Shown: positions 21,067 to 37,921, counted from the stretch's first letter. The stretch: 64,000 bases of DNA from an uncultured Verrucomicrobiae bacterium (GCA_963707025.1 CAVPOM010000009.1:1-64000), one strand, 5' to 3'. Notes: generated by a model not told the origin, from the letters alone. Made by a program: numbers and translations.

Positions 21067-21112
21067 CGGTTGCGCCCGTAGCTCAGTTGGATAGAGCAAC
21101 TGCCTTCTAAGC
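21067..21112 (+). repeat. att direct repeat, 5' half of tRNA-Arg(TCT)
   Basis: 46 bp identical to 37840-37885; ends just after the anticodon loop. Confidence 0.95.
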
Positions 21113-21311
21113 CCAAAACGCCGTTGTCACAAGTCCTCAGACCTCATCAGGAGCCTCATTTGCAAGGACTTATGACTTTTCAGTTTGCCTCAATCATCCC
21201 ACATCCGCTCGAAAACAGCCCAGTAGTATCCAAAGGCAGTATCATTAAATTCTCACCCCAACCAAAACTTAATTCACGCGGGGGCATCGTTTCACATACC
21301 CGGAACAGACC

Positions 21312-21551
21312 TCAATCCTTCTCGAGCTTTTCAGTGCGAAGAAGCCTTTGAATCAATACTCTATAAGCCTTCGCCAGTTGAAAAATCTCTTTTCGGCCCG
21401 GCAAGTCACCAGTTCTCTCCCAGGTTGTCAGAGTCGTCCTGGGGATGCCGGTCACTTCTGCTGCTTTCTCCTGCGTCAAATTTGCTTCTTTTCGCAGATA
21501 ATGCAGCCAAGCTCCATACGAATTTCGTCGTGCTTTTGGTGTTCGCCCCAT
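21312..21551 (-). CDS. XRE-family HTH regulator
   Basis: LRKEANLTQEKAAEVTGIPRTTLTTWERTG. Confidence 0.8.
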   Translation of the reverse strand: MGRTPKARRNSYGAWLHYLRKEANLTQEKAAEVTGIPRTTLTTWERTGDLPGRKEIFQLAKAYRVLIQRLLRTEKLEKD

Positions 21552-21873
21552 GCACGCCGAGAATAAGCTCCAAGCCTGACCAATTAGCCTTTTTGTCGAA
21601 TTTTCGACAAAATCATTGAAAAACTAATGGATTTCTATTGACATATCCACAATGACTGGTCTAAAAGACAACCATAAAGGGCAAAATGGGATGAAAACCC
21701 GAAAAGTTATTGCACAACGGCACCGAGGCCCTCAAAAGGAAAGACTTGGAATGCACTAATGTTTGCACCACCAACGCGGCGGCTCTGCAAGAGCTCGTGA
21801 AGGGGTCGATTGACCAGGGCGCTCTTCGCAAGGCGCTGTTTATTTTTCAACAACAGCCAACGGGAAAGGATAA

Positions 21874-23187
21874 ATGAAAACCGTAAAACTCAAAGCAATC
21901 GGAACGCTGCTCGCCGCCTTTTTCTCGACAATTCTCCACACCTCGGCTCAAAGCGGTCCACCCGCCCTCCCGCCAGACCCGCTGCTGGACCTGTTTGAGT
22001 TTCCGACGAACTTTGCCGCCCAATTCGGATACAGCCCCCTCGCTTACACCAACATCTTCTCTGTGCCGGTGTGGAGGGGGGATGCCTTGGTCCTGGAAAT
22101 GACAAATGCTGAGCCAGCCTTTCTCCAGTACAATCTGGTGGAAACCAACGGGAATACAAATTTAAGCTTTTCCACCGGCACGATTATTCTCTTCGTCGCG
22201 CCGGATTGGGCGAGCGCGGACACCAATCAGTACGGGACTGGTCCCGGTCAAACGGCGTACTTTTTAGGGGCTGGCGACTGGAGGACGGGTTCTCCGAATG
22301 GATTTTTTGGCCTTTCCGCTGACCCGTACGGAACCAACCTCGTTTTGTGGGGGATGAGCAACGGGGTGGCCACCAACTATGTCAACGCGGCCATATCCTG
22401 GAGTTCCAATGCCTGGCACGCTTTGGACGTCGAATACAGTCCCAGCAATTCTTTCCTTTATGTGGACGGCCAGTTGGCGGCGAGCGGCACGGGGGTGACG
22501 GTGGTTCCGGGCACCAATACCTGGACCAACGGACTGTGGATTGGCTCGGACAGCGCGGGTTTTGAACAGGCCCGGGGAGCGTTCTGGCATATGGAAACAT
22601 GGAACTTGCAATGGGGCGGACTCATCAATACCAACGGGTGGAGCAACCTTTTGAGCCAAATCACCACCTGGCAAGCCGGGCAGGGCGGAGGGGGTTTTGG
22701 CGGAATGATGGGCAGCGGTGTGCTGACGCCGGATGGGTCATGCACCAACTGCATTACGGGAACCAACGTGTATCTTGCGAACATGAGTTCCTTGCCGGAT
22801 GCAAACGGGGATGGGGGCACGACGTTCGTTTTCTCGATTCAAAGCGGGATGACCGGGGCGGCATACGACGTTTTCACCACCACCAACCTCATGGGAGCCG
22901 GCATCACGAATTCGACCTGGACATGGCTGGGCGAGGGAACCAATTGCGGAACCTACCAAATCACCAACCAACCGGTCGGCCCGTCGTTTTATGTGTTGGG
23001 AACCCCGCTGCCGGCTGCGGATGGCAGTGGCTTGACCCAGGCGTACGAAGCCTTGGTGCATTCGACATCCAGCGGCGGGGACGGCATTTCCGGCCTTTAC
23101 AAGCTGATGCACGGATTATCATTGAGTTCCAGCATCGCTGTTCCCTCGCTGACGTCCATCAGCATTCCGACGTGTCCAATTCCCTGA
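21874..23187 (+). CDS. Secreted protein with LamG/concanavalin-like domain
   Basis: SD GGAAAGGA, signal peptide, WHALDVEYS...LYVDGQL...LWIGSD. Confidence 0.75.
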   Translation: MKTVKLKAIGTLLAAFFSTILHTSAQSGPPALPPDPLLDLFEFPTNFAAQFGYSPLAYTNIFSVPVWRGDALVLEMTNAEPAFLQYNLVETNGNTNLSFSTGTIILFVAPDWASADTNQYGTGPGQTAYFLGAGDWRTGSPNGFFGLSADPYGTNLVLWGMSNGVATNYVNAAISWSSNAWHALDVEYSPSNSFLYVDGQLAASGTGVTVVPGTNTWTNGLWIGSDSAGFEQARGAFWHMETWNLQWGGLINTNGWSNLLSQITTWQAGQGGGGFGGMMGSGVLTPDGSCTNCITGTNVYLANMSSLPDANGDGGTTFVFSIQSGMTGAAYDVFTTTNLMGAGITNSTWTWLGEGTNCGTYQITNQPVGPSFYVLGTPLPAADGSGLTQAYEALVHSTSSGGDGISGLYKLMHGLSLSSSIAVPSLTSISIPTCPIP

Positions 23188-23206
23188 AAATACAGTTTTC
23201 AAAACC

Positions 23207-35687: not shown

Positions 35688-35751
35688 GCCGCCACTGTAG
35701 CGCGCCTCAAGAATCATGAATACCGACAGGGGACGGACGGGGCTGTCTGAA

Positions 35752-36618
35752 TTATTTGGCCATTTTGGGCAGGCCCGGTTTGCGGAAGCGCAGGCCGATC
35801 CGCTGGCAAATCTTTTGAATTCTTTTCAAGTCACCCGTTCTGTATTCGCCCATCACCTTTCGCAGCCAGCCGTGAAGCGCAGACACCGAACCGAGTTGCT
35901 CAATGAAGGGGTGATACATCATCAGCAGGACGTAAATCTCGAAGTTGGTACTGCCAAATTGTCCAATACCCGAGGTTTTCGGCTTGCGCGAGAATCCCTC
36001 TGCGAAGCCGCCAAGAAAGTTGGTCATGTCCTCATAGGGTTGATCCACACAGGAGCAGAGCGAACGCTTTGCCAGGCGCCGCAATCCCGAATACCACGCG
36101 GAAAACTTCTCGGAAAATGCTTTTCCTCTTTCGGTATCGGCATCGCTTACCGACTTCTGCCTGGTATTCAATGCGGCAGCCGCCTGCGCTTCGAACAGTT
36201 CCACCATCCAAACGCCATTGGCGCATTGATGCCCTAGAATTGCGCCCATTTGCTTTGGTGTAAATTTTGTGGTTCCTTTCAATTCAGCCCCAGGCATTAG
36301 GATACGCGCGATTTCGCCCGCCACTTTTTCCTCCCATGCCGGACACGCCTCATCGGGCAACCTGCCCACGCCAAGTTCCTCCGGAAAAAGTTCGTCGAGC
36401 TTCACGAGCTCACCCCCCAGGCGATTTAACCACCTGGCTCGCTCCGACTCGACACGGGTCGTCTCCGAAGACGGCTGGCCGGTGTCCACCATTATGCGCT
36501 CTTCCATTCTATTTGTCCGATCTTCCAACATAGCCGCCATTCTTGCACACTCGGTTGGACATTGGCTGTCCATGCGAAATGATTTTTGCGGACGAAAGAA
36601 GGCCGGAACGGTCCGCAC
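35752..36618 (-). CDS. Hypothetical protein downstream of the integrase
   Basis: Long ORF co-oriented with int; start uncertain. Confidence 0.6.
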   Translation of the reverse strand: MRTVPAFFRPQKSFRMDSQCPTECARMAAMLEDRTNRMEERIMVDTGQPSSETTRVESERARWLNRLGGELVKLDELFPEELGVGRLPDEACPAWEEKVAGEIARILMPGAELKGTTKFTPKQMGAILGHQCANGVWMVELFEAQAAAALNTRQKSVSDADTERGKAFSEKFSAWYSGLRRLAKRSLCSCVDQPYEDMTNFLGGFAEGFSRKPKTSGIGQFGSTNFEIYVLLMMYHPFIEQLGSVSALHGWLRKVMGEYRTGDLKRIQKICQRIGLRFRKPGLPKMAK

Positions 36619-36624
36619 CGCTGG

Positions 36625-37764
36625 TTACCCCGCTTTCGGCATGTAAACAATTTTGTCCTCAGCAAGTTTTGCGAAGGAAACCTTTTGCGCCATGCTCACC
36701 GAGTGCTGGTCCCGGAGGTGCCCATATACTTTCATCGCCAGCGCCCCGCCATCTTTGTGGCCGAGCCACCGCGAGACCGTTGGAATATCCACGCCCGATT
36801 CGATGCAGCGCGTTGCAAACAGGTGGCGCAAATCGTGATGTGTTATTCGCTGCATTCCCACGACCGTTGCGGCGCGGTCCATTGCCTTCTGGCATTCGTG
36901 AACACGCATCACTCCTGTTTCTGCCGTTTCGGATGCCCGGTCTGAACGCATTCGTTCCAACATTTGCCGCATTTCAGGAATCATCGGCACTTCCCGAAAC
37001 TCTCCGTTCTTGGTGCCCGTCCCAGGGTCGCCACGGACAACGATTTTGCCTTTGGTGAAATCGCAGTCCGCCCAGGTGATAAATGATGCCTCCATTTTCC
37101 GAAAACCGCCAAACGCCAGAAAACGCACCAATTCGGCGCACGGTTCCGAAAACCCGCTGCCGGAACTTTCAACCTCCCCCACGAACGCCAAAAATTCGTC
37201 GAAATCGGGTAAACGCAGTTTCTTTGGCCGCTCGCTTACCCTCTTAATGAATCTGGCCGGATTGTCATATCGTGCCCCACATTCAACGCCGACCTCAATT
37301 ATCCCGCGAAGAATACTGATCGTGTGATTATAGGTCGTTGGACTCATCTCCACACCAGACCGAGCCGCCCAACTGAGGCAATCCGGCTTTGTTATCCGCC
37401 GCAGTTCCAGTTCCGCCAAGCCGGGCCATGACTTCAGAAGCGCAGCGATCCGCTGATTGTAATACTCCTTTGTCCGAGGCTTGAGGGAGGCGTCTCCCTG
37501 AATCCGCTGGCGCAGAATTTCCGTCGCCTGGCCAAGCGTCATTTTGCCGTTGCCCAAGGCATCCTTGTTCTCAATCGTTTGGCGCTCCGCCTTCTCCAAA
37601 TCCGTCAAGCGAAGCTTTGCGACAGAGATCAGGTCCGTCTTGAGGCTCTTCCGAAGAAGCTTGCCCCGGATCCGAATTCGGGCATAGTATGTCCCAGATG
37701 GAACGTACCGAATCAAATTTGCATACTGACTTTTTTGCCAAACTGGCTGCAATTGTGTTTTCAT
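36625..37764 (-). CDS. Tyrosine integrase
   Basis: GFRKME, TKNG, HHDLRH, WLGHKDGG...VYGH. Confidence 0.95.
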   Translation of the reverse strand: MKTQLQPVWQKSQYANLIRYVPSGTYYARIRIRGKLLRKSLKTDLISVAKLRLTDLEKAERQTIENKDALGNGKMTLGQATEILRQRIQGDASLKPRTKEYYNQRIAALLKSWPGLAELELRRITKPDCLSWAARSGVEMSPTTYNHTISILRGIIEVGVECGARYDNPARFIKRVSERPKKLRLPDFDEFLAFVGEVESSGSGFSEPCAELVRFLAFGGFRKMEASFITWADCDFTKGKIVVRGDPGTGTKNGEFREVPMIPEMRQMLERMRSDRASETAETGVMRVHECQKAMDRAATVVGMQRITHHDLRHLFATRCIESGVDIPTVSRWLGHKDGGALAMKVYGHLRDQHSVSMAQKVSFAKLAEDKIVYMPKAG

Positions 37765-37844
37765 GTGGCCAGTATCCAAAATCAGTATCCAAATGTCAAA
37801 TTAATTCGGCATATTCTTTCATAAATAGTTGGAAATAAACGGTT

Positions 37845-37921
37845 GCGCCCGTAGCTCAGTTGGATAGAGCAACTGCCTTCTAAGCAGTTGGTCCCGAGTT
37901 CGATTCTCGGCGGGCGCGCCA
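37845..37921 (+). tRNA. tRNA-Arg (TCT)
   Basis: GCGCCCGTAGCTCAGTTGGATAGAGC...CTTCTAAG...GTTCGATT...GGGCGCGCCA forms a full cloverleaf. Confidence 0.97.

Follow-up and report, generated by a model that had tools for sequence, protein, structure and literature searches.

A 16.8-kb island (positions 21067-37885) was located in the tRNA-Arg(TCT) gene of an uncultured Verrucomicrobiae genome (GCA_963707025.1, CAVPOM010000009.1), within the 64,000-nt stretch of DNA that was analysed (the window). We judge with moderate confidence that this element is an integrative satellite of filamentous phages (inoviruses), which would excise, replicate by a rolling-circle mechanism and be packaged by a helper phage, with an Rhs toxin locus as a passenger. 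The island was not itself an inovirus, since it had neither a pI gene nor a coat gene. Judged by its genes, it appears to combine single-stranded DNA (ssDNA) replication of its own with a lack of virion genes, as expected of a satellite.

Boundaries, replication genes and absence of virion genes

The island was bounded by a 46-nt direct repeat (21067-21112 and 37840-37885), 100% identical at the two ends, that corresponded to the 5' half of the tRNA-Arg(TCT) gene and had no further copy in the assembly. The intact tRNA gene (37845-37921), which was the sole above-threshold match in an Rfam scan, was present at the right end, beside the start of the integrase gene. Because a second genome (G022) carried an upstream flank that matched positions 21053-21112 at 90% and was joined to an intact tRNA gene, the left copy of the repeat is likely to mark the native position of the tRNA; the element would therefore provide the 5' half of that gene. 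By gene content the element had its own integration and excision module with att repeats, as do integrative and mobilisable elements (IMEs). No sigma-70 site was found at attL. There was no circle or empty-site joint among the 15 joints listed out of 56, and the contigs from four runs contained relatives only (word share of at most 0.2) and were uninformative. The int, 288-aa, xis-like, ssb and rep genes were carried on the minus strand; the LamG, Rhs, putative immunity, orphan Rhs and Imm33 genes and three small genes were carried on the plus strand. The backbone features were as follows.

21067-21112, plus strand: attL, the 5' half of tRNA-Arg(TCT) (46-nt exact repeat; comparison with the G022 flank)
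21312-21551, minus strand: Xre-type helix-turn-helix (HTH) repressor-like gene (PF01381 above cut-off; NF041951 RstR below cut-off)
33603-34973, minus strand: two-tyrosine HUH rolling-circle initiator (Rep), related to phasyl Arp (PF23343)
34787-34872, minus strand: GC hairpin and, after it, a conserved A/T-rich motif, both within rep; candidate double-strand origin (covariation)
35058-35330, minus strand: predicted 90-aa OB-fold, gene-5-like ssDNA-binding protein (SSB; structure model, Foldseek, Atlas set)
35469-35717, minus strand: Xis-like HTH gene (weak PHROG 66 match, E = 1e-4)
35752-36618, minus strand: 288-aa gene without assigned function, kept between int and xis in relatives
36625-37779, minus strand: tyrosine integrase (PF00589 above cut-off; R/K/H-x-x-R/H/Y residues present)
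37840-37921, plus strand: attR and the intact tRNA-Arg(TCT) gene (repeat; tRNA match)

Rep matched PF23343 with a score of 30.5 bits (cut-off of 27.8) and PHROG 3419 with an E-value of 1.6e-13. The residues of motifs I, II and III (T116/T118, H161/H163 and Y258/Y262, the YxxxY of motif III) were invariant in 34 aligned homologues. The fold search itself was weak: the structure model had a pTM of 0.48 and gave no Foldseek match at E ≤ 0.001, and in a VIA search the top row was SIRV1 ORF119 (Z 7.2, rmsd 3.4, 113 aligned), which we take to be an HUH protein, tied with ferredoxin-like folds, with titled Rep domains at Z 5.7-5.9. The Rep profile had no match among PDB sequences and Rep had none among GenBank phages; only 15 loci, all distant, were recovered from IMG/VR. 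No canonical MOB relaxase family was matched in the family scan of the element.

The best named relatives of Rep were annotated as 'phasyl DNA replicon protein arp' and came from plasmids of 1.3-2.1 kb (27 records matched); identity to one phasyl-type Arp was 30% over 287 aa (E = 2e-36). Phasyl is a small E. coli replicon, a phagemid that is packaged by M13; the name Arp was taken from the PLSDB annotation. A phasyl-type plasmid also carried a hairpin-plus-motif inside the 5' end of its rep gene, in the same layout as in the element, and the DNA similarity did not extend more widely. Unlike the element, phasyl is approximately 1.3 kb in size; a single gene is annotated on it, and it lacks an integrase, an SSB and cargo. 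The hairpin within the element's rep showed compensatory changes at 11 of its 15 pairs in 45 sequences, with the encoded residues varying; none of 500 shuffles gave such a result, although this control is inflated by related sequences. The motif was not found in the rep genes of the other (RepB) type. On this evidence the hairpin-plus-motif is a candidate double-strand origin.

The SSB model was confident (pLDDT 89.7) and mostly beta. Its top Foldseek rows were OB folds (Sulfolobus SSB, HIN, RPA and PrgE), with probabilities of 0.9-1.0 and E-values of only 0.01-0.05, and one Atlas set corresponded to PF17426, Putative_G5P (score 0.94). The element therefore has the pairing of a rolling-circle Rep with a predicted ssDNA-binding protein that is looked for in inoviruses, and the same pair was present in two related loci, L100 and L101, that are described below.

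No virion or transfer genes were recognised. There was no Walker-A motif in any open reading frame (ORF) of at least 40 aa, and no Zot/pI match and no TcpA/VirD4 coupling protein in the element. Eight short ORFs contained a hydrophobic stretch, by a filter that three control coat proteins passed; all eight overlapped larger genes, so none was a coat candidate. Searches of the element with the pIII and coat proteins of L101 gave no match. These results bear out the gene inventory of a preliminary description of this DNA, which had reported a 46-bp terminal repeat enclosing a tyrosine integrase, an Xis-like gene, a small SSB-like gene, an HUH Rep with motifs I-III and about 10 kb of toxin and immunity cargo, and had seen no Zot/pI ATPase or coat-like gene.

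Relatives of the element and the inoviruses of the host

Relatives of Rep at 55% identity or above were collected from genomes and metagenomes, which gave 85 non-redundant loci, many of them short fragments. A pI gene was carried by two of these, L100 and L101, in which the SSB was 91% and the Rep 87-88% identical to those of the element; pI and pIII-like genes lay beside the SSB-Rep pair and coat-like ORFs lay upstream. At 18 of the 85 loci, several of them from one genome, rep (58-78% identity at the protein level) was followed within 1.2 kb by a conserved 200-nt segment that also adjoins rep in the element, with no morphogenesis genes in between. A quick tree of 40 Reps placed that of the element in a 12-member clade (SH-aLRT 100) together with the two pI-bearing loci. 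The deeper branches were all virion-less, which suggests that the inoviruses acquired Rep from a virion-less pool.

When 301 genomes of the order were searched with the SSB profile, 15 of them yielded 18 matches in total. Sixteen of these regions were newly fetched: three carried pI (L201, L203 and L216), three ended at a contig break just after ssb/rep and ten had SSB-Rep-Xis without pI. One of them, L200, was a second att-bounded, virion-less element, 12.4 kb in size and in the same tRNA-Arg; its integrase was 82% and its SSB 83% identical, and it had a different HUH Rep and non-Rhs cargo. In G003, a genome of the same genus, an identical attL was followed by other genes, with no toxin within the 7.4 kb read. 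Since G003 and L200 carry other cargo, the toxin locus is neither resident at this site nor a defining part of the backbone. In L202, genes for LamG (82%) and Rhs (85%, core 87%) with nearly unrelated tips lay beside an SSB of 91% identity and another Rep type; an Rhs gene was also present near this Rep in L014. Related backbones were found at different tRNA genes in different families. What emerged was a modular family in which Rep and integrase genes at tRNA genes were combined with variable cargo.

As an observation on site choice, related integrases in L004, L184, L186, L192, L199 and L200 target the 5' half of tRNA-Arg or tRNA-Lys and leave an intact tRNA gene beside the start of the integrase gene; remnants of 5' fragments show tandem insertions.

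In L203, coat, pIII, pI, Rep and SSB (81%) genes adjoined genes for LamG and a 2044-aa Rhs, a small downstream gene and orf130, in an order that was a circular permutation of the element's map with morphogenesis genes added. No att repeat bounding L203 was found and the contig starts inside the L203 element, so the Rhs gene is assigned to this inovirus by adjacency only. The replication module thus mapped to complete inovirus gene sets, although these were sets without a name. The shared circular map, together with the clade that Rep shares with two pI-bearing loci, would also suit a defective or domesticated inovirus prophage that has lost its morphogenesis block, may still excise and replicate, does not spread as such and is kept for the benefit of its toxin and immunity genes. 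We regard this as unlikely, given that the backbone genes were all intact and the two att copies identical, that the virion-less junction after rep was retained across Reps of 58-78% identity and that related backbones occupied different tRNA genes in different families.

The SSB-rep pair had sharp ends and occurred in several positions: it followed pI in L100 and L101, was absent from that site in a resident inovirus of the host (C16) and lay behind another rep and a pI remnant in L108. In L200 and L202 the same SSB accompanied a different Rep type. Such positions could be explained by a hitch-hiking cassette, either self-mobile or swapped by recombination, within an Int/Xis island that is moved by tailed-phage transduction or DNA uptake. 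This explanation appears very unlikely, as transposon ends were identified neither at the termini nor subterminally and the orientation of orf130 (opposite to rep in 21/21 loci) and the strand bias of its hairpin (27/29 copies), which are described in the next section, tie Rep to the ssDNA strand of the whole element.

Candidate helpers for the proposed satellite were present in the host, which carried two inovirus gene sets, each with its own Rep, SSB, coat, pIII and pI (set 1 at G000 C16:180320-186500; set 2 at C7:546840-end together with C9:447000-end). The idea that the element supplies Rep and SSB to these phages was rejected, because they have their own. Both sets were located at the ends of islands of approximately 27-38 kb with cargo resembling glycosyltransferase genes and genes for ribosomally synthesised and post-translationally modified peptides. 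Four distant Rep paralogues were also observed in the host (C12:231237-232481, C9:385990-387306, C4:70885-72288 and C6:820254-821105), most of them near integrases or tRNAs, each with a hairpin-plus-motif, with large secreted-protein or other cargo and without this SSB family.

The orf130 module and possible routes of transfer

Three features were found in addition to those in the preliminary description, namely an orf130-orf63-orf73 module, a 196-nt hairpin and the hairpin inside rep. The region between the cargo and rep was composed as follows.

32050-32410, minus strand: conserved non-coding hairpin region, common to other islands of the genome (z -3.4)
32398-32593, minus strand: 196-nt imperfect hairpin, its base covering the orf130 start (folding z, covariation)
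32581-33397, plus strand: orf130-orf63-orf73 module, opposite to rep, with no family match
33400-33603, no strand assigned: conserved 200-nt non-coding segment with the orf73 terminator and small hairpins (present in seven other places in the genome, 86-89%)

Orf130 had no match in Pfam, PDB or PHROG; it had 599 library relatives, none of them named among the matches listed. Folding of a 311-nt stretch containing the 196-nt hairpin gave a z of -9.7. Compensatory changes were seen at 14 of 55 pairs in 14 aligned copies, and four of five covariation measures exceeded all 500 shuffles; the number of further pair types did not (238/500). Across 29 copies, the region upstream of orf130 had z values of -1.4 to -17, compared with approximately 0 in the gene body. 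With DNA parameters the hairpin was more stable on the orf130-template (rep-sense) strand in 27 of the 29, a bias to which a mild G+T skew contributes. In each of 21 loci the nearest orf130 ran opposite to rep; two second copies were on the same strand. From this orientation and the strand bias it follows that the strand that Rep would displace would form the hairpin and template the module.

Elsewhere in the host genome, copies of the 196-nt hairpin were found only in the C16 (98.5%) and C7 (89.8%) islands, both of which adjoin the resident inovirus gene sets. A tRNA-Thr-like piece occurs both at the left ends of these islands and at the integrase-proximal ends, which is consistent with, though no proof of, each island and its inovirus set forming a single unit of 27-38 kb. 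Orf130 and the 200-nt segment were also present in island C14, with TrwC, and in island C1, with a relaxase-like gene, and lay in each case on the strand that carries the gene in question. The folding of the 200-nt segment was not exceptional (z -1.6), and its candidacy as an origin of transfer (oriT) was unsupported.

In Frpo, a long stem-loop on the entering strand precedes the genes that this strand templates (PMC11541004). The 196-nt hairpin has the same placement, as it precedes genes templated by the rep-sense strand. No sigma-70 -35/-10 hexamers were listed for 32398-32593, in a scan that may miss other promoter types, and the likeness to Frpo is therefore one of shape and place only. 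The hairpin is a candidate for one of three roles, as an ssDNA promoter, a minus-strand origin or a packaging signal. As regards packaging, it lies on the appropriate strand and has copies in inovirus-adjacent islands, but L200 lacks the module.

The same features bear on a second route, in which the element would be an IME: Rep would double as a relaxase, the strand would be exported through the conjugation pore of a helper plasmid or integrative and conjugative element, and orf130-orf63-orf73 would be the leading region. The orientation of the module towards the candidate nick site is that of leading-region genes towards oriT, and the module recurs in the TrwC-bearing C14 island. Streptococcal IMEs use rolling-circle initiators, including those of the PHA00330 type, as putative relaxases, and 35 of 118 such IMEs have no coupling protein (PMC5704250); distant homologues of Rep were found in Streptococcus islands of this type. 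Where mobilisation by such relaxases is known, however, it requires TcpA-type helpers (PMC5704250), the element encodes no coupling protein and VirB4 was not found in the host with two Pfam families (assembly 88% complete), where the only strong FtsK match was a single frame of 904 aa. In addition, where transfer genes of any kind accompanied SSB-Rep, the closest such contexts were inoviruses. We therefore consider the IME route unlikely. The preliminary description had proposed a helper-dependent element with an ssDNA phase, either a satellite or a mobilisable element; this was supported, and the balance now leans to the filamentous-phage side because the SSB-Rep pair is common to pI-bearing loci, Rep is related to phasyl Arp, the host has inoviruses and VirB4 was not found.

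If the element is an inovirus satellite, its cycle would proceed in six steps. Int and Xis, whose genes and sites are present, would recombine the 46-bp repeats. Rep would then nick beside the covarying hairpin, as in rolling-circle replicons, and displace the rep-sense strand, which the SSB, a predicted gene-5-like fold, would coat. A co-resident or incoming inovirus would provide coat, pIII and pI. On entry into a new cell, the strand-biased 196-nt hairpin may allow early expression of orf130-orf63-orf73, second-strand priming, or both. After integration, LamG and Rhs would be exported by means of the signal peptide and the immunity genes would protect the carriers.

Several points weigh against this reading. 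The element is known from its sequence, and neither excision, a circle, ssDNA nor packaging was observed. At 16.8 kb it is large for filamentous packaging, and no packaging signal was identified in it. One gene is split in each of the resident inoviruses (pI in C9, pIII in C16), although the two phages could complement each other because different genes are split, and their Rep and SSB differ from those of the element. The pI clade was found in 6 of the 15 SSB-bearing genomes and 5 of the 286 others (4 of 13 without two genomes whose SSB lies inside the phage); this co-occurrence favours a satellite, but its nominal p values are inflated by kinship and the count also by those two genomes, and 9 of the 15 had no pI match. 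The 196-nt hairpin is not universal, and L200 has neither it nor orf130. As the module occurs in the TrwC and relaxase-like islands (C14 and C1), it may mark ssDNA entry in general and not phage packaging. A conjugation system could be absent from the assembly, since this is 88% complete, and Reps of the PF23343 type also serve streptococcal IMEs.

The toxin cargo and comparison with known systems

The cargo block (21874-32020, 10.1 kb) had the layout of an Rhs polymorphic toxin locus, with a core ending in DPxG, a variable tip, downstream immunity and an orphan module.

21874-23187, plus strand: secreted-looking LamG protein, predicted accessory (PF13385; paired with Rhs in L202 and L203)
23207-29335, plus strand: 2042-aa Rhs protein with a TcB/TcC-like shell of SpvB, FG-GAP, TcdB_midN and Rhs core (family matches, TIGR03696)
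29350-29865, plus strand: putative immunity gene, 171 aa, assigned by position only (no Pfam, PHROG or NCBIfam match)
29863-30047, no strand assigned: dispersed repeat after the first immunity gene (45-nt part again at 32086)
30120-31703, plus strand: orphan Rhs module, 527 aa, with an HNH tip (core approximately 90% identical to the main Rhs)
31709-32020, plus strand: Imm33 immunity protein (PF09951 above cut-off)

The main Rhs protein had a signal-peptide-like start and the DPxG motif at residue 1843; its tip of 199 aa contained an E-x-D-x-E-x-Q pattern. This pattern is presumably restriction-endonuclease-like, and the tip is a predicted nuclease; it had no match in PDB. The toxicity, target and export route of Rhs are likewise predicted. 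The dispersed repeat, of approximately 100-170 nt, had at least 10 partial copies in the genome, and in relatives it also immediately preceded the orf130 module. As the backbone, the type of Rep, the site and the cargo are all variable, the toxin appears to be one passenger and not a defining part of the backbone. The preliminary description had inferred that the element spreads an interbacterial weapon; in this family the toxin is one of several cargos.

The preliminary description had also considered this combination not to be a described class, which was too strong a claim: the pairing of an integrase with a rolling-circle initiator has been published for streptococcal IMEs (PMC5704250), and inovirus satellites have been published too, namely RS1 (PMC11389934) and pDolos (bioRxiv 10.1101/2023.11.28.569023). 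The element probably works like pDolos, RS1 or phasyl; membership of that group would depend on packaging. The Shewanella satellite pDolos is a 2.9-kb non-integrating plasmid found in virions (bioRxiv 10.1101/2023.11.28.569023). Like pDolos, the element has its own rolling-circle Rep, a putative SSB and a repressor-like gene and lacks virion genes; unlike pDolos, it is 16.8 kb in size, with a tyrosine integrase and an Rhs locus.

TLC is a satellite of Vibrio filamentous phages that is integrated, virion-less, helper-dependent and of the rolling-circle type, and both RS1 and TLC use the host XerCD at dif. The element, if helper-dependent as proposed, resembles RS1 in the same four respects (PMC11389934) and, unlike these satellites of a few kb, has its own integrase at tRNA-Arg, a duplicated 5' half and 10 kb of cargo. 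With the streptococcal IMEs that have PHA00330, Rep_2 or Viral_Rep relaxases it shares a tyrosine integrase, Xis, a broad-family rolling-circle initiator and variable cargo (PMC5704250). These IMEs mostly encode TcpA (19 of 21 PHA00330 elements; PMC5704250), whereas the element does not, and it shares its SSB-Rep pair with inoviruses at 87-91%. The HUH Rep, gene-5-like SSB and integrase are features of inoviruses (PMC6813254), and L100, L101, L201 and L203 share genes with the element; the toxin pairs discussed for inoviruses in the available text are type II/IV toxin-antitoxin systems and not Rhs (PMC6813254). Unlike inoviruses, the element has no pI ATPase or coat. MuF toxins ride in tailed-phage head modules. 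The variable tip, downstream immunity and carriage on a mobile element are shared with the MuF polymorphic toxins of temperate phages (PMC5576092) and with Rhs/orphan loci; in contrast to MuF, the present locus lies on an ssDNA-type element and encodes a TcB/TcC-like Rhs that bears a signal peptide and has a LamG partner. A full-text literature search, which left most subscription papers outside its scope, retrieved no Rhs toxins in inoviruses or their satellites, although such sequences could be present in the supplementary tables of PMC6813254, and no elements of this kind in Verrucomicrobiota.

We tentatively suggest a wider picture, in which Verrucomicrobiota of peat and soil would host large (12-38 kb) integrative filamentous phages and virion-less satellites that exchange Rep, integrase and cargo, ship Rhs toxin-immunity arsenals in virions and carry on the viral strand a plasmid-style single-stranded leading region, the long hairpin and orf130 module, for expression on entry. 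If this is true, phages would have a counterpart of Frpo-driven establishment, and Rhs would be a first interbacterial polymorphic toxin borne by an inovirus, so that inoviruses and their satellites would join the known carriers of such toxins. Few inovirus satellites are known, all of them small; with a family that is rich in cargo and integrates by itself, a new phylum would be added to their range, and non-lytic filamentous packaging would become a testable means of spread for islands of unclear mobility. Because phage-type and relaxase-type islands of one genome share the strand-biased hairpin module, a direct test is possible of whether incoming phage ssDNA is transcribed before the second strand is made, as happens in conjugative leading regions.

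Several minor features were observed outside the element. A second island (13156-16497) with five ORFs was marked by a 42-nt exact repeat of the 3' end of tRNA-Asn. To the right of tRNA-Arg, at 38026-39352, there was a tyrosine-integrase-like gene apparently split in two frames, for which a distant copy of the tRNA 3' end was not found. The window also contained a 14-nt GC-rich tandem array (7089-7701) and a 51-nt coding repeat array (55918-56865). Elsewhere in the host, tRNA arrays of at least 10 genes were located at C2:106545-112159 and C8:72468-81806, one of which included a second tRNA-Arg(TCT).

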